From a virus (Duplodnaviria > Heunggongvirae > Uroviricota > Caudoviricetes): 42,272 nt of DNA. Below the pieces are notes generated by a model. It saw only the letters and a program-made list of their open reading frames with translations, had not been told where the DNA came from and searched no databases. Location of the stretch: the IMG/VR virus record IMGVR_UViG_2529292726_000021, one strand, 5' to 3'. Both the position numbers and the translations under genes were made by a program. Positions 2,391-42,272 of the stretch are shown here, in pieces (positions within the stretch are counted from its first letter, which is position 1; every line of letters begins with the position of its first letter).

Positions 2391-2559
2391 AACATTGATA
2401 ATGGCGGTCACAATTTGATTCTTTTCTATAAGAATCCGTTGATCGCCACTACTCCCCTTCCATACCTGCAATCACATCCTTAAATATCAATAGGTTATAG
2501 TTATTTATACCAATAAGAAAACAACTGAATAACAGATCAACGAAACGTCAACGCTTTCA

Positions 2560-3340
2560 CCCGATTTGGTCTAAAAAATTGACGTTTTCACACATCACTT
2601 CTTATACCCGTAATTCTACGCAGCAGATAGCGCCACAGCGTCCAATTTTCACCACAGACGACCCAACACACTACCAACAAAAACACACGCTCAAAATCGC
2701 TCCCGTTGCGTTACATAACCATATAAACAACTTATTTTCAGGCATAACAAAACAACTAAATAACACACATGCCATTCCCAAAAACAACCAACCTCTTTAT
2801 GGCAGGCTACCGAAAAGACCCACCTCTTCTCCCCAGGCTACCGGACAACCAACCTAACTTTCACAGGCAATCCGAAAACATTCATACGCGCGATACCCAC
2901 GACACGCCATTCCCCAAACAGCGAAGAAACACCAGAATCACTGAAACCCCAACGAAGCCTGTAACCGCAAGGATTCTCTCAATCCCAAAAGACACGAAAC
3001 ATAACAATCACGGGAAACGCCATTACCCAATACACGAATAACTACAAAAGCCTTTCACACACTCCAGACAAACAACTCAAACACAATAACGAAAGGAATC
3101 GCCCACCTGCCATTACTCCATACACGGAGAAGAACAATCACCAAAACGACGAGAACACCCCATAGAAGAACCACCGCAAAACGAACGAAACCACATACAC
3201 CGACAGAGAAAACAACACACCCAATTCACCAACAGAAATAGTCGCCGTATAGAACGTTCTGGAAGGAGTGAGCATTAACGCCTATAGAGAGGTTGAGACA
3301 GATAAAACACAACATGTATAGCGAAGAAGCCAGGTATGTA
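2560..3340 (+). other. A+C-rich, G/T-poor strand-asymmetric tract; candidate non-coding transcript or protein-binding region
   Basis: Sampled 60-nt lines are about 80% A+C on the plus strand; degenerate repeats GCCATT(C/A)CCCAA at about 2772, 2908, 3020, 3110; half copy of the early motif (AAGAAAACAAC, 2515-2525) just upstream. Confidence 0.35.
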
Positions 3341-3353
3341 TAAGTGGGGAGGG

Positions 3354-3378
3354 AAGGAGGGGTGTCGCCTCCTTTTTC
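3354..3378 (+). terminator. candidate terminator hairpin at end of the A+C tract
   Basis: AAGGAGG-ggtgtcg-CCTCCTT followed by a T run; preceded by G-run GGGGAGGGAAGGAGGGG. Confidence 0.4.
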
Positions 3379-3440
3379 GTATTTATTCAACTCCTGATTT
3401 TATCCCCCCGTAACACCCCTACGGTCAGCCTTCGGTCCAT

Positions 3441-3580
3441 ACAGGGAAAAGGTTGCATCCCGCTACAGAAACGGCTGGGTTGCCTTCGGGGAACGGCTGG
3501 AGGTTTTCAGGGAAACGGTCGAGTTGCCTGTGTGGATTTCGGGAAAAGGCTCGATGCCGGTTCAGGAACGGTGGCGTACC
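3441..3580. repeat. iteron-like direct repeat array 1 (six ~21-23 bp imperfect units)
   Basis: Units GGGAAAAGGTTG, AGAAACGGCTGG, GGGGAACGGCTGG, GGGAAACGGTCG, GGGAAAAGGCTCG, GGAACGGTGGCG spaced about two helical turns apart. Confidence 0.6.
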
Positions 3581-5901: not shown

Positions 5902-6030
5902 TATATAGGCTGCCAATGCTGGTGGCCTTAAATGACCATCCTGTTCCACGCAGGCTAAAAACACCAACCTCTTACCTCTAGGCAACCGACAAACCCACCT
6001 GTTCCCGTCCGGCTACCGCAACTTTCCACT

Positions 6031-6090
6031 TTGACGCCTTATTCGTACAACGATAATTAACACCAACAAGAAAACAATTTGTTATTTACG
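6031..6090 (+). promoter_or_regulatory. early promoter/leader module, copy with sigma70-like -35
   Basis: TTGACG (6031-6036), 17 bp, TAATTA within CGATAATTAACACCAAC, then AAGAAAACAAtTTGTTATTTACG (6068-6090); ATG 6105. Confidence 0.55.
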
Positions 6091-6104
6091 ATAAGGAATT
6101 AATC

Positions 6105-6587
6105 ATGAATTTTATCGCTACTGTAAACGCACCCGCACATGGCAATATCGCTGTAACGTTCTCTGACATTGAAAAACGAGTACTTGGTGCATGGCGCGAC
6201 AATGAGACGGTAGAACTGTCAGCACAAGAAAAATGCAATATTGCACGCGACATCATTGGCAATCGTCGTTACTCGCGGGTATTTGAGAAAGCGTATGTGG
6301 TAAATTCTGGATTCGGAACGTTCGTCTTTCCGGTGCGCTCCGGGCGATTCTGCCAGTCCAAGCTGATTGAGTTCGCTACGCAGATTTCTTTCTGGATTAA
6401 AACTCAATCGTCGTTCAAATTTTCCGACGATGAAGCAGTATCGCAGGGGATGCGGATCGCCAACAATGCGATTAAATGCAAAAACATTACGTATACCGCT
6501 GGCGTTGATACATGGAAACTGTTTTGCGCTAACTTTATGCTGAATGTATACGCAAGCAACCGCATCCACATCCTTGATGGCGTGTAA
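6105..6587 (+). CDS. hypothetical protein (160 aa)
   Basis: ATG with AAGGAA 7 nt upstream; no motif recognised. Confidence 0.6.
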   Translation: MNFIATVNAPAHGNIAVTFSDIEKRVLGAWRDNETVELSAQEKCNIARDIIGNRRYSRVFEKAYVVNSGFGTFVFPVRSGRFCQSKLIEFATQISFWIKTQSSFKFSDDEAVSQGMRIANNAIKCKNITYTAGVDTWKLFCANFMLNVYASNRIHILDGV

Positions 6588-6596
6588 CTGAGAAGA

Positions 6597-6618
6597 GGGC
6601 CAGAAACGGCCCTTTATC
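6597..6618 (+). terminator. candidate terminator
   Basis: GGGCC-agaaac-GGCCC followed by TTTATCT. Confidence 0.45.
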
Positions 6619-6636
6619 TATAGCCACCAGCTGCCG

Positions 6637-6761
6637 CAGGGAAATTTTCAGAAGCGGCGAGGAACGTATTCATGAGCCGACGGGGGAACGGCCAGGATTT
6701 TTTCGGGAAACGGCTGCATTCGCCTTTGTGTAGAAAAAACATCGGGAAGCTGGTGGAATCC
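6637..6761. repeat. iteron-like direct repeat array 2
   Basis: GGGGGAACGGCCAGG, GGGAAACGGCTGCATTCGCC, GGGAAGCTGGTGGAATCC share the GGRAAMGGYTG core of array 1. Confidence 0.55.
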
Positions 6762-6842
6762 AACCAGCGGTTGTCGGACAGGTGAGCGAGGAAAATTATG
6801 ATGACTTTCGTCGCCTGAGACATCCAGATTTCTTTCGTAGCG

Positions 6843-6897
6843 TAATCACATATGTGATTAAGTGGTGTGATTATGTGAAAAATCACGCGCACATAAT
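6843..6897. promoter_or_regulatory. cluster of palindromic operator-like sites
   Basis: Perfect 18-bp palindrome TAATCACATATGTGATTA (6843-6860) followed by further TGTGATTA / CACATAAT half-sites. Confidence 0.45.
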
Positions 6898-7134
6898 ACG
6901 CGAGCGGATACGGAGCAAAACAAAATGCCGATCCGCGCCGACAAATAAACGCGGATCATAAAGCAAGACTAAAAGCCAATAATTAACCATACTCTATAGC
7001 GCAATATAACGCGTTTTAAGCGCGTTAATGTGTTAAGTAATGGGTATATACTGGTAAGGATATAAAAGCTCGTCTGTGGCGTTATTTTGGCGCTTATTTT
7101 TATGTTGTTGGAGTGAGTTAAAGACAATAAAAAA

Positions 7135-7214
7135 GCGCCACTATTGGCGCGTTATGGTGGAAGTATTGGAAACGAAAAAAGCGCCCATAGTGGGCGCTAT
7201 TGTTTTTATTTTTC
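7135..7214. terminator. tandem hairpins; bidirectional terminator
   Basis: GCGCCA-ctat-TGGCGC (7135-7150) and GCGCCCA-tag-TGGGCGC (7181-7197) flanked by A runs on one side and T runs on the other. Confidence 0.65.
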
Positions 7215-7433
7215 TAAGTGAATATTAAAGCCAGCGTTTAAAAATTCTTGAAGCATTAAAGTAACATCAGCTTCATTGATTCCTGCGCGCGCTCTATGTT
7301 CTACGTCATTGATGTTTATTTTAAACGTTGTTTCATCAACCACTTCAGAACTTAGAGCATATCCAGCTAAACCAGCAATATCATAAACAAGAGTATGATT
7401 ATTGATATTTACGCCAGAGATGAAAATAACCAT
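7206..7433 (-). CDS. hypothetical protein C (75 aa), AT-rich cassette
   Basis: ATG with AAGGAA 8 nt upstream on minus strand; ends just before the bidirectional terminator. Confidence 0.55.
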   Translation of the reverse strand: MVIFISGVNINNHTLVYDIAGLAGYALSSEVVDETTFKININDVEHRARAGINEADVTLMLQEFLNAGFNIHLEK

Positions 7434-7454
7434 GATTAAGTTCCTTAAAAAAAA

Positions 7455-7658
7455 TTAAATAGAATTTTGAAGTTTTCCGATTAATGCGCTTAAACGTAAG
7501 TATTCACGTTTACGCTTGCAATCTCGCTTGCTGTTAAGCAAATCAGAAAACGTAAAATTTAATTGGTCGCGTTGCGCGATTAAATCATTGATTAATTCTA
7601 GTTTATAAGCGCGATACTTTGCGCGATATTCCGCGCGGATCTTGTCATAGCTGACCAT
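7455..7658 (-). CDS. hypothetical basic protein B (67 aa), AT-rich cassette
   Basis: Start moved to ATG 7658 with AAGGAG 8 nt upstream; the track start at 7703 lies inside an intergenic hairpin. Confidence 0.5.
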   Translation of the reverse strand: MVSYDKIRAEYRAKYRAYKLELINDLIAQRDQLNFTFSDLLNSKRDCKRKREYLRLSALIGKLQNSI

Positions 7659-7706
7659 TTTTAAAGCTCCTTTAAAGCGCCCATAGTGGGCGCTTGATTC
7701 CATTAA

Positions 7707-8357
7707 TTACGCTTTGAAAGCATCAGCTAAATAATTGTAGAAATCATTTTTAATGAAGCGATATTGCTGAGTACCAGCTTTCGCGCTCCCAGCTCCTTTG
7801 ACTTTTTCAACAAGTCCAAGACGTTCGCAAAGATTGATCAACTGGTTGGCTTGAGTATAGCCAGCGTCCAATTTAATTTCACACGCTTTTTTAGCTTCAT
7901 TCATTAAATCGAAAACAGCGCCATTCGTGAACGTGTCGATCTCGTCGTTAATCATATCGATTAAAGCGAATACACGAGATCCAGACATATCAGCGACGGA
8001 ATAAACACATTTACCAGCTTTAATGGATTTAACCAGATAAACCAGTTTTTCCAGTGAATAACTATTAGTCATTGCATCACGGAAAAATACTTCTGGCGCT
8101 TGTTTACTTGCTTTAATCGCATAGTAGAAAACAGAGCATAATTTTTCGTCTTCTACTGCGTTTACGACGTTGTTGATGAAGTAAGCAAGTTTCGTGGTCG
8201 CAGCTTGCATGTTTGCTTTGTCTGCTTTTGTGTGCGTACCATTTTTATAATGTTCGTTATATGTTTGAGTTGCCAGATCTGCTTTTTCGCGCAGTTCATC
8301 GGATACAATGGAAGCAGCTTCAATGATGGATTTTTTAGAAATGATAATGTTAGTCAT
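7707..8357 (-). CDS. hypothetical protein A (216 aa), AT-rich cassette
   Basis: ATG with AAGGAA upstream; no recognisable catalytic motif; AT-rich codon usage. Confidence 0.6.
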   Translation of the reverse strand: MTNIIISKKSIIEAASIVSDELREKADLATQTYNEHYKNGTHTKADKANMQAATTKLAYFINNVVNAVEDEKLCSVFYYAIKASKQAPEVFFRDAMTNSYSLEKLVYLVKSIKAGKCVYSVADMSGSRVFALIDMINDEIDTFTNGAVFDLMNEAKKACEIKLDAGYTQANQLINLCERLGLVEKVKGAGSAKAGTQQYRFIKNDFYNYLADAFKA

Positions 8358-8655
8358 GATTTTATTCCTTAGTATAAATATTAAAATTTAACTCAAGAAA
8401 GAAAGTGTTTTGCACTCGTTCCTGATGCGTTCAATTATCGATACGCGAAAAAAGATTGCAAGTGTTTTTTTTAAGTTTTTTTGCAGGGGTGAAAGTCCTA
8501 GAAATAAAAGTTAGATCGTCGAAGGTGTTCCCTAAATAAATAATAAATTCCGGCTTTTGACCTTATATATTTATACGGGGGAGAATTGAATGAGTGTTAA
8601 ACGAATGGCATGTAAAATAATAACCGGACTTAGCCGATTATTACCCTTATAGAAA

Positions 8656-9174
8656 TTAAAACGGAAGGATTCGTTCAACCCAATCGAAGAAAATAAGTAT
8701 TTTTCTACCGTCTTCCAACTTAAGTGTGACTAGACAGGCGTCAACGCCATCTGACGTTCCCTCAATTTCGCGACCGTCTGCCATGTAGACCCTTATAGAT
8801 TTGCCGTTTTGGTAAGCCTGACGACATATCTTAAAAAAGTCACGACGTGATGGCTGATTAACCATCTGTTCATTGTTTAGCGTTAGTCGACCTGTGAATG
8901 AAGTGTCAACCTCTTCTATGCCCGACTCAATTGTGCTAATGCGCTCAAGAGGGAGCCTTATACGATTTGTGTTGCTAAGCGGATCTGGTGTGAGGTTCAG
9001 CTTATTTCTTGCGCTCAATAGCCCGTAGACATACATGCAAAACACTTGGCCGTCTTCGAGAGTGACTCTTACAGGAAATTTTGCACTCCGCCAGAAGAGC
9101 AAGGTGCGCTCAGCATGTTCGTAGTCTCGCGGCCAGACTTCAGCCGGTATGCCGTAGGTGATGTCTTTAACCAT
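8656..9174 (-). CDS. hypothetical protein (172 aa) with internal repeat
   Basis: ATG with AAGG upstream; two related segments (VRVTLEDGQVFCMYVY and VTLKLEDGRKILIFFDWV). Confidence 0.55.
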   Translation of the reverse strand: MVKDITYGIPAEVWPRDYEHAERTLLFWRSAKFPVRVTLEDGQVFCMYVYGLLSARNKLNLTPDPLSNTNRIRLPLERISTIESGIEEVDTSFTGRLTLNNEQMVNQPSRRDFFKICRQAYQNGKSIRVYMADGREIEGTSDGVDACLVTLKLEDGRKILIFFDWVERILPF

Positions 9175-9276
9175 AGTCTACCTTTTTAAGTCTTTTTTGG
9201 TCATTATATACATCTCTATGATGCGTAGACAGACTAACCGTACATTCCACCAAAAATTGATTATGGAATAAGTTTC

Positions 9277-10077
9277 ATGAAGAATGGGGTGAATAAAAAA
9301 TACTCATTAGCATTGTTAATAGCGGCTTTACTATTAACAGGTTGTGATTCTGATGAAGAGCGAGCCATAGATCTAGTTGAAAAGGATATTCGCTCTACAC
9401 TGCTAGATCCTGATGCTGGTCGGTTCACGAATATGCGAGCTATTCAGTTAGGTGAAAATAGCTATTCATATATGGTATGTGGAGAGGTGAATGGTAAAAA
9501 CGTCTTGAACGCCTATACAGGTGCGACCGCATTCAATGCACACATCTTTGATGTTCGTGAACGTAACCCGATTGTATTCGTTGCAATGGATAAAAGTACC
9601 AACTCGGCAAGAGAACGATTACGTTTTGAACGCCAAAATCTAGCATGTAAAGAAAATGGTGTGAAACTTTATCTGGAAAACGAATCTAAAATCAGGAAGG
9701 AAAAAGAGAAAATAGATGATTTAAAAAAAACTCCATTAGGTCAGGCTGTGTTTGATGCTGCAAGTGATTCGACATATGTGAGTAGAGAGTTGGGCGAATC
9801 GAGAGGTGTTAGTGAAGTGTATGCAAGAGAAAATGATAAATATGCTCTTGTTAGCGTCACCAATTATGACACTCCTGACTTTTACAAATTTAGGAAAAAA
9901 GACAACGGTGAACTAGAACCTGTTAGGGGACTGTCTTATACCGGCTATCCATTCGCGGTTACACTGTGCCATTCTGAACAAACAGATTATGACAAATGTA
10001 TAACAGAAGAAGAAATCAAGTTGCTTCGAGACGAAAAGAATAAGCTCGATGATTTTGTCGTGCCACCAGAAGAATAA
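9277..10077 (+). CDS. putative lipoprotein (266 aa)
   Basis: N-terminus MKNGVNKKYSLALLIAALLLTGC has a signal peptide and lipobox (LTGC) with Cys at residue 23; AT-rich. Confidence 0.65.
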   Translation: MKNGVNKKYSLALLIAALLLTGCDSDEERAIDLVEKDIRSTLLDPDAGRFTNMRAIQLGENSYSYMVCGEVNGKNVLNAYTGATAFNAHIFDVRERNPIVFVAMDKSTNSARERLRFERQNLACKENGVKLYLENESKIRKEKEKIDDLKKTPLGQAVFDAASDSTYVSRELGESRGVSEVYARENDKYALVSVTNYDTPDFYKFRKKDNGELEPVRGLSYTGYPFAVTLCHSEQTDYDKCITEEEIKLLRDEKNKLDDFVVPPEE

Positions 10078-10137
10078 CATATACAAAATATTTAATTGCT
10101 GTTAATATTTAATCGTTCAGACATAGGGAAAGTCCGA

Positions 10138-10171
10138 ACCCTCGACAAATCTTTCTGATATTGTCGAGGGT
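10138..10171. terminator. hairpin between convergent genes
   Basis: ACCCTCGACAA-atctttctgata-TTGTCGAGGGT between the lipoprotein stop (10077) and the minus-strand gene stop (10190). Confidence 0.5.
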
Positions 10172-10189
10172 ATGCTTCCAAGTGATGAG

Positions 10190-10543
10190 CTACTTATACC
10201 CTAATTCTTTACAGCTTTCTTCAAAAACCTCTTTAGGTAGGATATTTAGATCTACAATAGTGTTGCTGTTCTTGGTTAACACGTCATTGTAAGGAATTTG
10301 TACCCATCTGTAACCTGTATACCCACCATATGAGTTAGTCGCATTTAGTTTGAAACAATATGTATTGCTACCTTCAACGTGATCTGGGAATTTGTATTTA
10401 GCTGCATCCGGGGCCAGTAATTGTTTTTCTATAATATTTTTAATGTAATCTTGCTGAACGGGCGTTAAAGGTTTGGCTACTGTATTTCCTATATAGAATG
10501 CCAAGAGTGCCATAGAAAAAAATTGAATTTTTTTAGACTTCAT
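10190..10543 (-). CDS. putative secreted small protein (117 aa)
   Basis: From ATG 10543 the N-terminus MKSKKIQFFSMALLAFYIGNTVA is a typical signal peptide; the track start at 10564 is a TTG without SD. Confidence 0.55.
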   Translation of the reverse strand: MKSKKIQFFSMALLAFYIGNTVAKPLTPVQQDYIKNIIEKQLLAPDAAKYKFPDHVEGSNTYCFKLNATNSYGGYTGYRWVQIPYNDVLTKNSNTIVDLNILPKEVFEESCKELGYK

Positions 10544-10571
10544 CTTTTTAACCGTCTTTGACAATGAGAGT

Positions 10572-11147
10572 TTATGAGCGTTTGTTGAGCAGATCTACAA
10601 TCAGCTTTTGAGGTGTATTTTCCTCTTTTGTCTTAGGTAATCCATTCTGAGGTAGCGTCGATAGTCTGTTCTTATCTCCTCTAGGTAACTCAAGCCTTTT
10701 CTTGATCTGCACAATAAGTTCCCATAGACTGTCTTCGTTCTCAACCTTTATAGAGTAGCCTACGCCACAATATGAATCACTTTTTAAGCGATTGTGAATT
10801 TTGAACGTATTGAAGTTTGAGCTTAACTGAATATATCCTGGGGTAATACCATCTATACTTTCGATCACAGGAAGTATTTCTTTTATCTGGAAAGGGAAAA
10901 TGACCAATGAATAATCATCTCGTCTTTCCTCATTGTCTGGTGAAATTAAATAAATGTAGTAAGGGTTGTTTTTTGAATAAGATTCTCGTAATGCTGAACT
11001 CTTTCCGAAGTAGAAACCTTTAGCGTGAATTTTATCTTTCGTTTCTTTCCCCCGTTGTATCTGAATGTTATTTTCGCTAAGTGTCCCATTTGATACATAT
11101 GAAGCTTTATCCAATATCGTGTGAAGTTGTGTATTTGAAAGAGCCAT
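10572..11147 (-). CDS. hypothetical protein (191 aa)
   Basis: ATG with AAGGGA 8 nt upstream; no motif recognised. Confidence 0.6.
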   Translation of the reverse strand: MALSNTQLHTILDKASYVSNGTLSENNIQIQRGKETKDKIHAKGFYFGKSSALRESYSKNNPYYIYLISPDNEERRDDYSLVIFPFQIKEILPVIESIDGITPGYIQLSSNFNTFKIHNRLKSDSYCGVGYSIKVENEDSLWELIVQIKKRLELPRGDKNRLSTLPQNGLPKTKEENTPQKLIVDLLNKRS

Positions 11148-11291
11148 TAGCTATCCCTTCGACCAAACTCAGCGATGAAGCCTACAAATATCATTCAGCC
11201 AATCAAGAATTTTTTTCAGCCGGAGGTGTGCACTTCAAAAAATGTGATGAATGTCACATGCAGGTGCTCTCATACACCTGCATGTAGACTA

Positions 11292-11858
11292 TTAATCATT
11301 CAATAATCTATATTTTCTTTTGATTAAATCTTCACCTTTTTTGGTGAACACAAAACCAAATTGCGATTTTTTGTTCAGCCTAAGGACTCTGTTATCCAAC
11401 GCATCGGTTGATGGAATCAATGTTTGATCATCTATCCAATTTAGTAGCGTAAGAAAGTTCAGCAGCCTCAACGTTGTTGTGCGAAGCTCTTTCGATATAT
11501 TTTCAATGCTGGCAATTCGTCTTTCTTTTTTCTCAGGTAGTACAGATAATTGTTCTTGAGGTTTCGTGGATAGATAATCAATTTCGTTTGCAGCATCGAA
11601 TGATATGTGTGGCGTTATTTTGCTAAAAAAGCCTTTCGCTGACTCACTTGATAATAAACCAGACCTATTCATATCGTTTGTTATTCTGTACAGGAGTGGA
11701 CTGTGTTTCATTTCAGGATAACGTTGATAAAAGTTAAGCAATTCAAAAGCAGCATTAGCGCCAACAAGAAAATCAGAAGGATCGCTGACTTTCCAGAAAG
11801 AATGATTTTTCTTAGCGCCAGTGGTGTCAACAAATGATAATTCTTTTAACCAACTCAT
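11292..11858 (-). CDS. hypothetical protein (188 aa)
   Basis: Start moved to ATG 11858 (AAGGAG 7 nt upstream); SD and start lie inside a 10-bp-stem inverted repeat (11859-11890). Confidence 0.55.
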   Translation of the reverse strand: MSWLKELSFVDTTGAKKNHSFWKVSDPSDFLVGANAAFELLNFYQRYPEMKHSPLLYRITNDMNRSGLLSSESAKGFFSKITPHISFDAANEIDYLSTKPQEQLSVLPEKKERRIASIENISKELRTTTLRLLNFLTLLNWIDDQTLIPSTDALDNRVLRLNKKSQFGFVFTKKGEDLIKRKYRLLND

Positions 11859-11923
11859 GATGTGCTCCTTTCTAACAAGTGAGCACATCATAGAATTAGT
11901 AGATAGGGGGTAAATATAAAATG

Positions 11924-12202
11924 TTACGGCAACCTGCTCAGTATTTCCTCTAAATCTTTTTTTGTCATATTGGAGTTTTCATAGATGCGCATGATTTTCT
12001 CACGCGTCTTAGCGGAAACCCCAACGGCAGATGTGACTTTGTCAAATTCAGCCATAGTCATCGTCTCCAGAATGGCATTGATAACTTCAGCCTTAGACAT
12101 CTTGATTTTTTTCTCTTTGAGTTTTATTTGGAATTTTCCAAGTTTTTCATTGGCCTTATCAGACAATGCCACTTGGCAATAAGTTGTTTTCTTTTCGCTC
12201 AT
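11924..12202 (-). CDS. hypothetical small Lys-rich protein (92 aa), possibly DNA-binding
   Basis: ATG 2 nt after the helicase stop (translational coupling); 5' coding region contains AAGAAAACAACTTATTG, resembling the early motif. Confidence 0.5.
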   Translation of the reverse strand: MSEKKTTYCQVALSDKANEKLGKFQIKLKEKKIKMSKAEVINAILETMTMAEFDKVTSAVGVSAKTREKIMRIYENSNMTKKDLEEILSRLP

Positions 12203-12204
12203 AA

Positions 12205-13764
12205 CTAATCTCGTTTCAGAACTCCAAAATCGAATGCGCCATCAATAGGCAATACACCTTCCGCAAAGCCAGGTGTGGTGTCGATGATGTGTTTTCGCTC
12301 ATAAGAGTGAGACAACAGGTATTTGTTGCTAATGTCAATGAAATCAGTGATAAAACACACGTTTGCCTGATTCTTCTTGGCTCGTAAGCCACGACCGACA
12401 CGCTGCCTCATTTCAACTTCTGCTTTCCCACCACCAGCAAGAATGACCGCACCAACGCTTGGCACATCAACACCGACATCCAGAATAGTCGAGCCTATTA
12501 AAACATCTATTTCGCCAGACGCTAAACTGTTCAGCTTTGCTTGCCTTGTCGACTGGTTCGATTCCCCATAAATGAAGTCAACTCTAAGGCCGGACTCTTT
12601 CATCATTTCCATCAGGATTTGCCCGTGGCGTTTAAGACGAACCAGAGTCATACAATTGAGAGAATGTTGCTTATAGAGCAATGCTTCGCGAACAATGGCC
12701 TCATTACGTCCCAAATTATACACGATCCCCAACTGATAAGCCTTTTGGTAGGCGGTGCTCATACCAACTCTAAAATTGAGGTGTTTGTTGGCAAGTTCTG
12801 CCTTGATTCTGGCCTCGTCCGGCTTGTAGGCAACTTTATGATAAAGGAAGTATGGTTTTGCCAGAATGCCTCGATCAATCAGGTACTTTTCTGTGACTTT
12901 AATTTCAATTCGCCCGGCCACAGCCATCAGACGCATGTTGGCTTCTGTAGAATCCTTCATGAACGGCGTGGCCGTAAGCGCCAGACGATAGTCTGCGTTC
13001 ACACATAATCTGGCAATGTCATAGAAATTAGAACCTGAAGACTCATGCGCCTCTTCCAGAATAAGCAGAGACACACTTGAAAGGAAGCGTTTCACCAAGT
13101 CCCGACGTTTGAGGTGGTAGCTCTTCTTATCTGGAGTTGCATCGCGTGGTGGTTCTTCAAGGAAACTTGCCAGAGTTTGAACTGTAGCGACGTTGATATG
13201 TCGTGATACCTGGAACTCACCAGAGCCAATGACTCCAACCTTTTGGTCTTTTAACCACGGTTCGCCATTTTCGGCGCGGTAGTCGATGGATCTCTGGAAG
13301 TTTTCGGCCATCTGAAACATCAGAACAGAGCGAGTTGTTAAAAATAATGTCATTCGACCGATACGTGCAGCCGCTTTGCAGGCAACATTAGATTTCCCGC
13401 CACCAGTAGCGATCTGCGCAATCATCATTCCCTCTCGAACCAGTGTTTCCACAGTCTGATCCTGATACGCATAATCAGGATTGTATGGGAATGGGTTAAC
13501 CGCCGGATTTGGTTTACCAAGCGCCGGGGCTTTGTCTTTGCGGATATGAACACATTTGATGCCCGCCTTGTTCAAGTTCGCCGCTACAGGCTTGGCAAAG
13601 CCAGCAGGGAACGAGTTTTTACTCCAGTTGAACATTGTGCTTGTGCCCTTCCAGTCGCCAGTCTCGACTTCGTAGCTCAACATCTGTTGCACCAGTTGCT
13701 TTACCTTGTCATCTGCGCCAGAAATAAGCGCATTAACTGCGTTAGATACAATCCGAACAGTCAT
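12205..13764 (-). CDS. superfamily 2 DNA helicase (DEAH-type)
   Basis: Motif I ATGGGKS, motif II LEEAH, motif III TATP, motif VI RVGRGLR in order; AAGGAAAGAGG upstream of ATG. Confidence 0.75.
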   Translation of the reverse strand: MTVRIVSNAVNALISGADDKVKQLVQQMLSYEVETGDWKGTSTMFNWSKNSFPAGFAKPVAANLNKAGIKCVHIRKDKAPALGKPNPAVNPFPYNPDYAYQDQTVETLVREGMMIAQIATGGGKSNVACKAAARIGRMTLFLTTRSVLMFQMAENFQRSIDYRAENGEPWLKDQKVGVIGSGEFQVSRHINVATVQTLASFLEEPPRDATPDKKSYHLKRRDLVKRFLSSVSLLILEEAHESSGSNFYDIARLCVNADYRLALTATPFMKDSTEANMRLMAVAGRIEIKVTEKYLIDRGILAKPYFLYHKVAYKPDEARIKAELANKHLNFRVGMSTAYQKAYQLGIVYNLGRNEAIVREALLYKQHSLNCMTLVRLKRHGQILMEMMKESGLRVDFIYGESNQSTRQAKLNSLASGEIDVLIGSTILDVGVDVPSVGAVILAGGGKAEVEMRQRVGRGLRAKKNQANVCFITDFIDISNKYLLSHSYERKHIIDTTPGFAEGVLPIDGAFDFGVLKRD

Positions 13765-13846
13765 AAACCTCTTTCCTTAGTGCCTTTTGTATGTTATTTG
13801 GCTATTATAATAAGTAAGTGATTACTTAGTGGATTGTAGCAATAAA

Positions 13847-14527
13847 ATGGATGTAAAAATCACGATTTTGCAGGTTGATGTTGCCAACCTTCGCCCGAAT
13901 ACCTGGAACACCAATTCGGTTGGTGCGCAGAATTTTGAAAAACTGAAAGGTTCTATCGAAAAATTGGGCTTTTTTAAGCCAATTTTGGCTCGTGAACTTG
14001 AAGATGGATTTTTTGAAATCCTCGGCGGCGAACATCGCTGGCGTGCCGCTATTGAGCAAGGAATTTCAACGGTTCCAGTGCTTTCTGTGGGCAAAATTAG
14101 CGATGTCGTAGCTAAACAGATGTCACTGGTGGACAACGAGCGATACGGTGAAGACGACCAAATCGCATTGCAACGCTTCATTGAAGAAATTCAGTCAGAA
14201 CTTGACTATCAACTGTCTGAAATCGCCCCGTATGACGACGAAATCTCGATGGTTTTAGCAAAAGAGGCGGCAATCGACCTTGAAGCACTGGAGGCGTTGT
14301 CTCGTGGTAGTGATGAGCCTGTCGATACCGACAAACGAGAGAAAACCGAACGTGTCGGTGCGGAACATCAGACCATGCGCTTCAAAGTAACTTTCGATGC
14401 GTCAGATCGCGTTGCAGAAACCATAAAAAACATCATCAAAGAGCAGGCTATTAACACCGGTAATGAAATGGAGAACGCTGGTGAGGCTCTGGTGTGGCTG
14501 GTCGACTACTACAAGGAGCGTATGTAA
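13847..14527 (+). CDS. ParB-like N-terminal domain protein
   Basis: GGEHRWRAA resembles the ParB/sulfiredoxin GxxRxxA box; start ambiguous (GTG 13829 or ATG 13847). Confidence 0.55.
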   Translation: MDVKITILQVDVANLRPNTWNTNSVGAQNFEKLKGSIEKLGFFKPILARELEDGFFEILGGEHRWRAAIEQGISTVPVLSVGKISDVVAKQMSLVDNERYGEDDQIALQRFIEEIQSELDYQLSEIAPYDDEISMVLAKEAAIDLEALEALSRGSDEPVDTDKREKTERVGAEHQTMRFKVTFDASDRVAETIKNIIKEQAINTGNEMENAGEALVWLVDYYKERM

Positions 14528-39590: not shown

Positions 39591-41950
39591 ATGTGGTACA
39601 GGGAAGGTACTATCACATTTACACAGGGTAGCAATACTCTGGTTGGGGCAGGGACAGCCTGGAACGTAACAGCTAATGGTGTGTTGCCGGGGATGATCGT
39701 CATTGGCCCCGACAATAAGCTGTATGAGATCAAGCGCGTAACCAGTGATACGAACATTGTTCTCTCAGAACCTTATACCGGCGAAACTCAGTCTGAAGTT
39801 CCGTGCCGAATCATTACGACCTATGAAGGCGACTTAACACAGTTTAGCGCGCGCTTTACTGCGCTAATGTCGCGTATGTCGGCTGATTCCAAGTCCATAC
39901 GCAGTTGGTTGACTGCGCTGGATGAGGTGACAATCGAGCGTGAAGACGGTACAGAAGTGACCGTTAAGCCGCTAATGCAGATCGTCAACGAGCACAACGA
40001 AAACGTTGAGTGGTATAAAAATAACACTGACGCGATTGATGCTGCTGGCGACAAAGCTCGTGAGGCGGCGGCCAGTGCTGCCGCAGCAGCCAAAAGCGCC
40101 AATGCCGCTGGAGAAAAAGCCTCTCAAGCGTCTCAAAGTGCATCCGCTGCGGCATCCTCACAAAGTGCCGCAAGTGCGAGTGCAACTGCTGCGAAAAAAT
40201 CTGAAACGAATGCTGCAGCGTCACAAAAATCTGCAGCCACTTCTGCATCCACCGCGACCACGAAGGCGTCAGAAGCTGCCACCTCAGCCCGGGATGCGGC
40301 GGCCTCAAAAGAGGCAGCGAAATCATCAGAAACGAGCGCAGCCTCGAGCGCCAGTAATGCCGCTTCCTCGGCAACGGCGGCAGGAAATTCCGCGAAGGCG
40401 GCAAAAACGTCCGAGACGAACGCCAGGTCTTCTGAAACGGCAGCGGGACAGAGCGCCTCGGCTGCGGCAGGCTCAAAAACAGCGGCTGCGTCGTCTGCCA
40501 GTGCCGCGTCAACAAGTGCCGGGCAGGCCTCAGCCAGTGCCACCGCCGCCGGAAAATCGGCAGAAAGTGCCGCATCGTCTGCTTCAACTGCCACAACGAA
40601 GGCTGGCCAAGCCACTGAACAGGCCAGCGCAGCAGCGAGGTCTGCTTCCGCAGCGAAGACATCCGAAACGAACGCGAAAGCGTCGGAAACCCGTGCAGAA
40701 TCCTCAAAAACGGCAGCCGCATCGTCCGCCAGTTCGGCGGCGTCATCGGCATCATCGGCGTCTGCTTCAAAAGATGAGGCGACCAGACAGGCGTCAGCAG
40801 CGAAGGGCAGCGCCACGACGGCATCCACGAAAGCAACAGAGGCGGCAGGCAGTGCGACGGCAGCATCTCAGAGCAAAACTGCTGCTGAATCCGCTGCGAC
40901 CCGTGCGGAAGCTGCTGCTGATCGTGCTGAAGAGATTGCCGGTGCAGTTGCGATGGAAGACGCAAGCCTTACAACTAAAGGTGTTGTGAAACTTAGCAGT
41001 GCTGTCGACAGCACCAGTGAATCGCTGGCCGCAACGCCAAAAGCAGTTAAAGCAGCCAATGACAATGCGAATAGCAGGGTGCCATCTAACCGAAAAGTTA
41101 ACGGTAAAGCACTGACTGCGGATATCAAATTAACGCCGAAAGATATTGGTACTTTAAATTCAGTAACGATGTCTTTCTCTGGCGGGGCAGGGTGGTTCAA
41201 ACTGGCTACGGTTACCATGCCACAAGCGAGTTCCATCGTTTACATCGCATTGATTGGTGGCGCTGGTTACAACGTCGGCTCCCCACATCAGGCAGGCATT
41301 TCAGAACTGGTTCTACGAGCAGGCAATGGAAACCCCAAAGGGATTACAGGTGCTTTGTGGAAGCGTACAGCTGTCGGATTAACGAATTTCGCCTGGATCA
41401 ACACATCCGGCGATACATATGATATTTACGTTGAGATTGGCAATTATGCGACTCGTGTAAATATCCATTGGGATTGTACTGCAAATGCGACAGTTTCTAT
41501 TTATACATCGCCAACATATTCAGCGAGTAAGCCTTCCAGCGTTACCGATGGTGTTGTTTATACGATGTATAGCACACATCAGAAACCGACGCCGTTAGAT
41601 ATTGGAGCACTGCCAACAACCGGAGGAACAGTTTCAGGTCCGTTGTCTGTTACAGGTGGATTAACTGGTTCATTGAATGGTAATGCAAGTACAGCCACGA
41701 AATTGCAGACGGCAAGATCTATCGGTGGAGTTGTTTTCGACGGTTCTGCAAATATTAACCTTCCAGGTGTAAACACTACGGGTAATCAGAACACCACTGG
41801 TAATGCTGCAACTGCTACAAAACTTCAGACGGCAAGAACTATCGGCGGCGTGAGCTTTGATGGTACTGCGAATATTAATTTGCCAGGTGTTAATACGACT
41901 GGTAATCAGAACACAACGGGCAACGCGGCTACTGCTACGAAGTTGCAGAC
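39591..41950 (+). pseudogene. side tail fibre (Stf-like) gene truncated at the 3' end by IS2
   Basis: ATG with AAGGAG upstream; long Ala/Ser-rich repeat region with recurring KTSETNA units; TKLQTAR(S/T)IGGV...NTTGNQNTTGNAATA repeats; frame runs into the IS2 end at 41951. Confidence 0.75.
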
Positions 41951-42272
41951 TGGATTTGCCCCTATATTTCCAGACATCTGTTATCACTTAACCCATTACA
42001 AGCCCGCTGCCGCAGATATTCCCGTGGCGAGCGATAACCCAGCGCACTATGCGGATGCCATTCGTTATAATGCTCGAACGCCTCTGCAAGGTTCTTTGCT
42101 GCCGTTAACCCGTCTGGTTTGGGCATGATACTGATGTAGTCACGCTTTATCGTTTTCACGAAGCTCTCTGCTATTCCGTTACTCTCCGGACTCCGCACCG
42201 CCGTGTTCTTCGGTTCAAGTCCCAACATCCGGGCGAACTGGCGTGTTTCATTAGCCCGGTAGCATGAACCAT
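41951..42272 (-). mobile_element. IS2 (IS3 family), partial copy continuing beyond window
   Basis: Terminal sequence TGGATTTGCCCCTATATTTCCAGACATCTG matches remembered IS2 end; encodes the C-terminus of the IS2 orfB transposase. Confidence 0.85.
41962..42272 (-). CDS. insD: IS2 transposase orfB (InsD), C-terminal part
   Basis: Translation ...[35 protein letters not shown]...[31 protein letters not shown] matches remembered IS2 InsD C-terminus. Confidence 0.85.

Follow-up and report, generated by a model that had tools for sequence, protein, structure and literature searches.

Conserved genes and exchangeable cassettes in the low-G+C block of an SSU5-type phage-plasmid

The DNA considered here, hereafter the window, is a stretch of 42,272 nucleotides from a virus of the Caudoviricetes (IMG/VR record IMGVR_UViG_2529292726_000021). 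Between about 6900 and 12200 it carries a block of nine genes with a low G+C content, flanked by genes for a superfamily 2 (SF2) helicase and two ParB-like proteins. Comparison with related loci indicates that this block is a mosaic of conserved genes and cassette slots rather than a single island, and we lean towards regarding it as the moron (lysogenic-conversion) region of a phage-plasmid, through which the envelope of the lysogen may be remodelled. Over 6500-12600 the sequence agrees at 100% identity with the 112-kb Escherichia coli plasmid CP025888.1; Escherichia phage PhiR41_1 follows with 97.7% and phage Cyrano (pLF82) with 94% across 76% of the length, and SSU5 and Klebsiella phage-plasmids give weaker matches. 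These matches identify the window, as far as sequence can, as part of a phage-plasmid of the SSU5/pHCM2/pMT1 type. Membership in the SSU5 supergroup is further indicated by backbone identity and synteny with SSU5, pHCM2 and pMT1 and by the nature of the related replicons, which are non-mobilizable plasmids of about 100-115 kb; 741 of the 773 plasmids matching the 6500-12600 query are non-mobilizable. The helicase and ParB proteins are 90-93% and 84-88% identical, respectively, to their homologues in pMT1, pHCM2 and Klebsiella elements. A terminase is annotated a few kb past the region in relatives, and PhiR41_1 and CP025888.1 carry the same nine genes as the window.

Gene content and base composition of the block

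The G+C content of 6900-12200 is 37.8% against 48.1% in the rest of the window, and the 5.3-kb segment with the lowest G+C of all 42 kb starts at 6951. The initial annotation had recognized this AT-rich block, although the values that it quoted (33-35% against about 50%) were too extreme: the flanks are at 46-49%, and only 36% of the 60-nt lines in the block are at or below 35% G+C. The composition is also uneven inside the block. The gene coding for a 172-amino-acid (aa) relative of the flagellin repressor FljA, called here the fljA-like gene, has a backbone-like 46.2% G+C, as opposed to 33-39% in the other eight genes.

The nine open reading frames (ORFs) are arranged as first described, i.e. 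a minus-strand trio (7206-8357), the solitary 172-aa gene (8656-9174, minus strand), a lipoprotein gene on the plus strand (9277-10077) and four minus-strand genes (10190-12202), which continue the helicase operon. The left edge of the low-G+C block is a non-coding zone (6588-7205) in which plus- and minus-strand transcription converge. These 617 nt are free of genes, none being annotated there in PhiR41_1 or Cyrano, and contain hairpin clusters at 6886-6958 and 7078-7198. Twelve terminator-like sites were found in 6500-14000, where 6.6 were expected, and eight of the twelve lie within 6886-7198. An Rfam scan of 6000-14000 returned only sub-threshold matches, located at terminator hairpins (STnc350 and MicX in 6588-7205).

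The minus-strand trio starts with g75 (7206-7433; 75 aa, phrog_1585, 32.9% G+C), which occupies a small variable slot. It is followed by g82 (7455-7703, phrog_6145), a small basic protein whose 82-aa ORF probably codes for 67 aa from a start at 7658, and by g216 (7707-8357, phrog_1513), a 216-aa backbone protein that is syntenic in relatives and has neither a Pfam nor a PDB match. A promoter-like site lies near g216, at 8461-8434. PHROG 6145 and SSU5 records name g82 an 'MIT family metal ion transporter CorA'; this identity is implausible for a protein of 67-82 aa and looks like a propagated annotation error. A spacer of 298 nt with 31.9% G+C (8358-8655) corresponds to a second slot, vacant here, and separates the trio from the fljA-like gene (8656-9174, minus strand; PF03614), a core gene of the SSU5 supergroup.

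The interval 9175-9276 contains a divergent promoter region, with a visible TATAAT-like box, between the fljA-like gene and lpp266, as well as the left breakpoint of a recombination hotspot. Four cargo genes of 34-39% G+C fill this hotspot. The first, lpp266 (9277-10077, plus strand), codes for a 266-aa lipoprotein with a lipobox. It converges with g124 on a strong hairpin, CCCTCGACAA...TTGTCGAGGG (10137-10171), which adjoins an indel breakpoint at 10178/10179. The three others are on the minus strand: g124 (10190-10564), predicted to be periplasmic and probably 117 aa long from an ATG at 10543; g191 (10572-11147), predicted to be cytoplasmic, with a predicted YgaC-like fold; and g199 (11292-11891, phrog_13473), also predicted to be cytoplasmic and probably 188 aa long from 11858. 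The later starts of g199 and g124 match the annotation of relatives and exact database entries. The right anchor of the hotspot is g92 (11924-12202, minus strand; 92 aa, phrog_1466), which lies 2 nt after the SF2 (DEAD/ResIII) helicase gene (12205-13764, minus strand; Pfam ResIII, DEAD and Helicase_C). The latter is the first gene of the minus-strand operon and stands outside the low-G+C block, with 47.1% G+C and 82-100% identity in relatives. PHROG families exist for all nine proteins. The initial annotation held that none of them had an assignable motif; this is true of eight, for which Pfam, NCBIfam and PADLOC gave no above-threshold match, whereas the 172-aa protein matches PF03614 over its full length. 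Inside the block, no tandem or long repeat was found besides the duplication of a 21-nt hairpin, described below.

Conserved genes and cassette slots

The proteins of the window were compared by tblastn with 92 loci, giving a presence/absence matrix. These loci comprise 91 regions around fljA-like homologues (80 on IMG/VR contigs, the others on phage or plasmid records and on genome contigs) and the fliC region of E. coli K-12. Wherever a locus reaches far enough to include them, g160, g216, the FljA-like protein, g92, the helicase and ParB are present almost without exception. Identity is 62-100% for g216 in all relatives whose locus extends there, including pMT1, pHCM2 and Klebsiella elements, and 36-100% for g92 in nearly all relatives. 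The cargo proteins are far less frequent: lpp266 is present in about 14 loci, g199 in about 30, and g191 and g124 in 10. In all ten of these loci g191 and g124 occur together, and always with g199.

Breakpoints with respect to relatives were located at about 9165 (start of the fljA-like gene), where similarity to relatives without cargo stops, at 10178/11177 (an indel of g124+g191) and at 11920-11954 (end of g92). The two anchors of the hotspot, g92 and the fljA-like gene, are both present in 89 loci, where they lie 106 to 2934 bp apart; the 2752 bp of the window are near the maximum. The commonest content of this hotspot is a single 140-aa lipoprotein of family C0 (phrog_890, 'lipoprotein'), present in 47 of the 89 loci; in pHCM2, pMT1 and most Klebsiella elements it is the sole gene of a slot of about 500-660 bp. 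Other cassettes are C4, a 199-aa secreted protein (17 loci), C2, i.e. g199 (27), C9, i.e. g191 (10), C10, i.e. g124 (10), and C12, i.e. lpp266 (nine loci, plus one in which the gene is split). C14 (seven loci) and C25 (two loci) are g191-like families, homologous to g191 by hhalign with 90-94% probability. Gene order is constant, with g92, [g199], [g191-like], [exported protein] and fljA-like following one another, and 84 of the 89 hotspots have a signal peptide or a lipobox on at least one gene.

Two further slots were recognized. One lies straight after the stop codon of the fljA-like gene; empty in the window, it comes in three sizes among relatives (about 300, about 600-640 or about 2000 bp). 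In many of these (L006, L064, L005, L019 and L040 among them) it holds Cys-rich ORFs of about 100 aa with signal peptides; in L084 the slot spans 2 kb and codes for a 337-aa protein and a lipoprotein. The other contains g75 and g82. An exact 21-nt palindromic terminator hairpin, AAAGCGCCCATAGTGGGCGCT, is found at 7178-7198 and again at 7674-7694, 496 nt apart, flanking the two genes. Relatives hold g75, g82 or both: g75 has two alleles, of 99% and about 46% identity, and is unmatched in other relatives, and g82 is present or absent. This duplication around a variable gene content suggests that the hairpin is the recombination joint of a third, smaller cassette slot.

The block, as far as these alignments tell, is a mosaic and not a single island: only 9175-11923 (about 2.7 kb) appears to be a large accessory hotspot, with the g75/g82 slot separate from it. 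Low G+C and absence from close relatives coincide in 9175-11923 only; g216, the fljA-like gene and g92 are present family-wide. The initial description as an accessory island therefore applies to the hotspot and to the g75/g82 slot, not to those three genes, which are syntenic in nearly all 92 loci. Absence of the block from relatives with the same backbone, which had been put forward as a check, was observed for one part, missing or replaced in such relatives, while about half of the block is conserved. Conversely, the syntenic conservation that had been named as a refutation holds for g216, the fljA-like gene and g92, while the cargo genes vary. The cargo itself seems to form a pool specific to this phage-plasmid family, since the plasmids of PLSDB that carry g199 (179), g191 (83) or lpp266 (64) are nearly all non-mobilizable and, among the matches listed, almost all of about 100-115 kb.

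Expression of homologues in Cyrano lysogens

Expression data are available for homologues of several of these genes through RNA sequencing of E. coli LF82 carrying Cyrano (Misson et al., S1 Table; PMC9928086). Identity between Cyrano and the window is 98-100% for the lipoprotein, g199 and g92 (99% for the lipoprotein and 100% for g92) and 75% for the fljA-like allele. The lipoprotein gene CYRAN_115 is at log2 of about 4.8 in lysogeny broth (LB) and at 7.9-9.4 in Dulbecco's modified Eagle medium (DMEM) or macrophages, an increase of about 10-25-fold. The fljA-like gene CYRAN_114 similarly rises from 4.2 in LB to 6.9-8.1 in DMEM or macrophages (8-15-fold). The homologues of g75 (CYRAN_112), g216 and g199 are near floor in LB and reach at most 5.9 in DMEM or macrophages. 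Terminase and portal genes are near floor in LB and still low in the other conditions, and transcripts of the major capsid gene are likewise scarce up to an increase seen after 6 h in macrophages. The g92 homologue CYRAN_117 is listed as a moron, 12-fold over the prophage background in lysogens, close to the 10-fold value of the putative master repressor of Cyrano. The flagellin mRNA of LF82 is very high (log2 11.7) while the fljA-like gene is on (PMC9928086). At least the divergent fljA-like/lipoprotein pair thus behaves as autonomously expressed, environment-responsive prophage genes, i.e. as morons.

These data bear on an explanation in which the block would consist of AT-rich housekeeping genes for regulation, accessory replication functions or the control of lysis and lysogeny, its variability reflecting a neutral turnover of cassettes. 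The syntenic core position of g216, the fljA-like gene and g92 fits such an explanation, as do the extension of the helicase operon by minus-strand genes with a gap of 2 nt before g92 and the expression of g92 near that of the putative master repressor. The fljA-like alleles are moreover swapped as exact ORF cassettes, a pattern also seen in phage immunity and specificity genes. We nevertheless judge this account improbable. Four to six of the nine genes are missing from most members of the family, yet those members persist as plasmids, and SSU5 and PhiR41_1 were deposited as phage records. The cargo consists mostly of exported proteins with no obvious role in replication or regulation, and the lipoprotein gene is induced by the environment in lysogens while lytic genes are silent.

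The FljA-like protein

In Salmonella, FljA binds the 5' leader of the fliC mRNA and blocks its translation; its action is mainly exerted at this level. The 172-aa protein of the window matches the Pfam profile PF03614 (Flag1_repress) with E=1.3e-68 and 230.5 bits for a cut-off of 24 bits, residues 4-169 covering positions 1-170 of the 170-position profile. Aligned over 170 aa with the FljA of a true hin-fljB-fljA locus on a Salmonella plasmid (L007:3986-4525), it is 35% identical, with 53% positives (E=2e-36). It also has the invariant motifs (YG..AE.WPRDY, PSRRD.F.IC and DWV.RI) of a family alignment of 14 sequences. A weak Sm/Hfq-like signal was detected at residues 119-163, and a PDB search with the FljA family gave only noise at E>0.2 and a weak Hfq-like hint. 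From this homology we infer that the protein is an RNA-binding, post-transcriptional (translational) repressor.

The gene is widespread within the family. By tblastn on PLSDB it was found in 835 plasmids, among them 345 from Klebsiella, 229 from Escherichia, 92 from Enterobacter, 62 from Yersinia (pMT1) and 60 from Salmonella, including pHCM2. Among 50,697 phage records it occurs only in SSU5-like phages, besides two short fragments, and a scan of genome contigs for relatives returned five loci. A 48%-identical chromosomal homologue (P0072) lies among SSU5-like remnants and not beside a flagellin gene. The alleles, 67-100% identical, are exchanged between near-identical flanks as exact cassettes whose boundaries are the ends of the ORF, and no linkage to the alleles of the neighbours g75 and g92 is evident across the loci compared. 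Pairwise ratios of nonsynonymous to synonymous substitution rates (dN/dS) are 0.10-0.33, so the gene appears to be under purifying selection, including in Klebsiella elements.

The obvious target of such a protein would be the flagellin mRNA of the host, repressed in lysogens, with the neighbouring exported proteins being unrelated morons. This would have consequences for motility, for flagellin-triggered immunity or for the adsorption of flagellotropic phages, any of which would then be reduced. Homology to FljA over the full length with its invariant motifs argues for it, as does the 8-15-fold induction in DMEM and macrophages, a situation in which less flagellin would help the host. The name 'repressor of phase-1 flagellin' is moreover already given to the gene in the SSU5 GenBank record and in some records of the Prokaryotic Genome Annotation Pipeline. 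Klebsiella, on the other hand, is devoid of flagella, and the gene is equally conserved, and under purifying selection, in the Klebsiella elements (345 plasmids) and in those of non-motile Yersinia pestis (62). No flagellin gene is linked to an fljA-like homologue in the 91 loci, and neither flagellin nor hin genes were found near it in the window, pMT1, pHCM2 or Klebsiella loci. Its upstream neighbours are lipoprotein, secreted or uncharacterised genes, which is not the co-transcription of fljB and fljA. Only chance-level matches to the fliC leader (9-13 nt, E>=0.33) were found in the window. S. Typhi strains that carry pHCM2 still express H:d flagellin, and identity to FljA is just 35%. The abundant flagellin mRNA of LF82 likewise gives no support to flagellin repression, this evidence being weak because FljA acts mainly on translation. 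The repression of host flagellin is consequently rated as unlikely, if far from negligible: given that phage-plasmids in hosts without flagella keep the gene as well, the usual target of the FljA-like protein is probably not host flagellin. No literature linking FljA with phage-plasmids, SSU5, pHCM2 or pMT1 was found in the library searched.

Proteins encoded in the large slot

The lipoprotein lpp266 has an LTGC lipobox with Cys23 and Asp at position +2. In E. coli, Asp at +2 is an inner-membrane retention signal, and the predicted location of lpp266 is the periplasmic side of this membrane. It matches phrog_20234 over its full length and phrog_2320 with its N-terminal domain, and PDB sequence and profile searches gave only noise at E>0.2. 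The g124 protein has the features of a Sec-type signal peptide and shares a domain with the N-terminus of lpp266 (BLASTP E=4e-6, hhalign 87%, both phrog_2320). Its co-occurrence pattern marks it as the obligate partner of g191.

The g191 protein has no export signal and belongs to a very narrow family, with seven clusters among 5.8 billion proteins and five profile matches among 1.84 billion representatives. Its predicted model, with a mean predicted local distance difference test (pLDDT) score of 63, matches YgaC (PDB 2g7j) at 16% identity without a Pfam DUF2002 match, and a fold search against viral predicted structures returned nothing. Divergent elements of the Klebsiella and Enterobacter types retain both g191 and g124, with undisrupted ORFs and 42-60% identity. 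In the hotspot of L020, a 377-aa protein combines an N-terminal part that is weakly g191-like (phrog_31250, E=2e-4) with a C-terminal HNH nuclease (PF01844, E=3e-6); direct comparison with g191 by hhalign was not significant (E=0.17). The g199 protein also has no export signal. Its predicted structure is poor (pLDDT 42), and no Pfam or PDB match was found, even with a profile of relatives 42-85% identical. A resemblance of its C-terminal half to KilAC/ANT-type antirepressors, noticed by eye, received no support from Pfam scans of eight diverse members or from the PDB profile.

The initial annotation had singled out the whole block as the most likely place for an undescribed system, of defence, exclusion or anti-defence. 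In the nine proteins, a profile search found no match to the 5027 PADLOC models: seven had no hit at E<=0.1 in PADLOC-DB v2, and the two others had weak partial hits, g82 to PDC-M47B (E=0.01) and g199 to SspC (E=0.005, 78 of 1053 positions). The flanking helicase matches generic PADLOC helicase models. No recognizable enzymatic or pore-forming domain was found in any of the nine. In a survey of 1227 SSU5 contigs with DefenseFinder, known systems were only sporadic, and none was found in pHCM2-like elements (bioRxiv 10.1101/2025.09.12.675607). An SSU5-like plasmid in Klebsiella pneumoniae is reported to lower plasmid uptake and phage burst (PMC8969562). A protective function somewhere in SSU5-type elements is plausible, and the variable part of the block is a plausible home for exclusion-type genes.

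A new anti-phage defence or abortive-infection system made of g199, g191 and g124, with or without lpp266, would agree with several of these observations. The g191+g124 pair is invariably found with g199 (10 of 10 loci) and stays intact at 42-60% identity in divergent elements, the g191-like domain is seemingly fused to an HNH nuclease in L020, the low G+C and the hotspot position fit, and the K. pneumoniae plasmid has a protective phenotype. The probability that we give to such a system is low all the same. Besides the absence of a PADLOC hit and the sporadic occurrence of known systems in SSU5 contigs, the four cargo proteins contain no nuclease, NTPase, protease, TIR, SIR2 or pore-forming domain and no transmembrane effector, and the link between g191 and the HNH protein was not significant by hhalign alone. 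Defence systems usually move between unrelated elements, whereas these families are all but confined to one phage-plasmid family, with five representatives among 1.84 billion and listed plasmids that are non-mobilizable and of about 110 kb.

Functional interpretation

The explanation that we consider rather likelier to be right than wrong is that the block is the low-G+C moron, or lysogenic-conversion, region of an SSU5/pHCM2/pMT1-type phage-plasmid and serves to remodel the envelope. Genes kept throughout the family (g216, the FljA-family regulator and g92) would form the backbone, between which recombination slots would be filled from a small, family-specific pool of cassettes: the large slot 9175-11923, the slot after the fljA-like gene (vacant here) and g75/g82. 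In the window the large slot would be nearly full, with g199, the g191+g124 pair and the divergent lpp266. While the element is a plasmid-prophage, the cargo genes would be transcribed from promoters of their own, and the phage proteins thereby placed in the periplasm and the inner membrane may alter the lysogen's envelope. The likeliest outcome would be that related phage-plasmids or other phages are kept out of the cell (superinfection exclusion), an alternative being an effect on the interaction with the host. The FljA-like protein would meanwhile bind the leader of a specific mRNA and stop its translation, as FljA does with fliC. Both the exclusion or envelope function and the existence of an RNA target are proposed by analogy.

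Several points weigh against this proposal. No cargo protein resembles a known exclusion protein, Pfam family or PADLOC family. Neither g199 nor g191 has an export signal, which leaves their part in an envelope function unexplained, and the g199 homologue of Cyrano is barely expressed in lysogens (PMC9928086). The expression data come from a relative with a 75%-identical fljA-like allele and without g191 and g124, the fold of g191 comes from a medium-confidence model, and the functions of the block genes are deduced from sequence and from the expression of homologues.

A more specific and quite improbable version would unite the fljA-like gene and the exported-protein slots on either side of it in one 'replace-and-repress' module analogous to fljB-fljA. 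The phage-plasmid might make its own envelope protein, and the FljA-like protein might silence the competing mRNA of a host envelope or surface protein or of a rival element. Exchangeable FljA alleles would then set target specificity, and the fljA gene of Salmonella would descend from a phage-plasmid gene.

Related replicons and other observations

A few records related to the block may be mentioned separately. The full nine-gene block is found at about 98% identity on plasmids of E. albertii that measure only about 62 kb, half the usual length or so (e.g. NZ_CP034165.1 and CP043251.1), which suggests that these plasmids are deleted derivatives that kept it. On an E. coli chromosome (L003; CP125919.1, 385158-397682), diverged homologues of g160, g216, the fljA-like gene (48%), g199, g92 and ParB were found, in what looks like an integrated or degraded SSU5-like element. 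SSU5-type sequence or an fljA-like protein fragment also appears under Gram-positive names (L012, JAEWTL010000044.1, 'MAG: Bacillota bacterium'; P0078, labelled Gemella morbillorum), probably through mis-binning or contamination. Elsewhere in the window, 2501-3500 has a strong strand asymmetry unlike the rest (GC skew -0.45 and -0.14, AT skew +0.33 and +0.36), with no tandem repeats found there, and 40001-41000, within an 845-aa ORF (39591-42128), has a G+C content of 0.59-0.60 for a window mean of 0.47.

Comparison with known systems

Overall, the block is what one typically finds as a moron or hotspot region in temperate elements, with no categorically new biology. The sequence is public, its genes are named hypothetical, the similarity to FljA has been annotated since the SSU5 record, and AT-rich moron regions are known. 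In the literature searched, the slot architecture, the almost constant presence of an exported protein beside a universal FljA-family gene and the obligate g191/g124 pair seem to be undescribed. Clinical E. coli, Shigella, Klebsiella and S. Typhi (pHCM2) commonly carry SSU5-type phage-plasmids, which also make up part of pMT1 in Y. pestis. The accessory biology of these elements is largely undescribed, and the analysis separates backbone from cargo in the segment of theirs that is richest in A+T. The whole family carries an FljA-family regulator, also in hosts that lack flagella. The slot genes are candidates for the protection phenotype of the Klebsiella SSU5-like plasmid, because the slots almost always supply an exported protein, and the g191/g124 pair represents a family with almost no relatives elsewhere.

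The FljA of Salmonella enterica (PF03614) has the same length as the protein of the window and aligns with it from end to end, with 35% identity and common invariant motifs; the FljA-like protein probably shares its fold and RNA-binding activity. It differs in its context, being unlinked to hin or flagellin genes and a core gene of a phage-plasmid family whose hosts include non-flagellated bacteria. The medium-confidence model of g191 resembles YgaC (DUF2002, PDB 2g7j), an enterobacterial cytoplasmic protein, but has extra N- and C-terminal segments. This match gives no mechanism for g191 because YgaC itself has no assigned function, and the literature on YgaC was uninformative in this respect.

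Sim of P1, Llp of T5, Cor of phi80 and N15 and Ltp of TP-J34 are phage envelope proteins that act in superinfection exclusion. Like these and the lambda moron Bor, the exported proteins and lipoproteins of the cargo are encoded by small genes of low G+C content that stand between functional modules of a temperate phage and, to judge from homologues, are expressed in the lysogen, probably from their own promoters. No similarity to Sim, Llp, Cor, Ltp or Bor was found by Pfam, PHROGs or PADLOC. Proteins of the Cor/Llp type are outer-membrane lipoproteins of about 60-80 aa that block a phage receptor. With its 266 aa, Asp at +2, predicted inner-membrane location and absence of a Pfam or PHROG match to such families, lpp266 is much larger and does not belong to this type, and g124 differs from the exclusion lipoproteins by its obligate cytoplasmic partner g191. 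The closest parallels are found within the family itself. SSU5, pHCM2 of S. Typhi, pMT1 of Y. pestis, Cyrano/pLF82 and PhiR41_1 have the same gene order as the window, i.e. ParB-ParB / helicase-g92-[slot]-fljA-like-[slot]-g216-[g75/g82]-g160. In pHCM2, pMT1 and most Klebsiella elements the large slot holds one C0 lipoprotein gene, whereas the present element accommodates four genes there in 2.75 kb.

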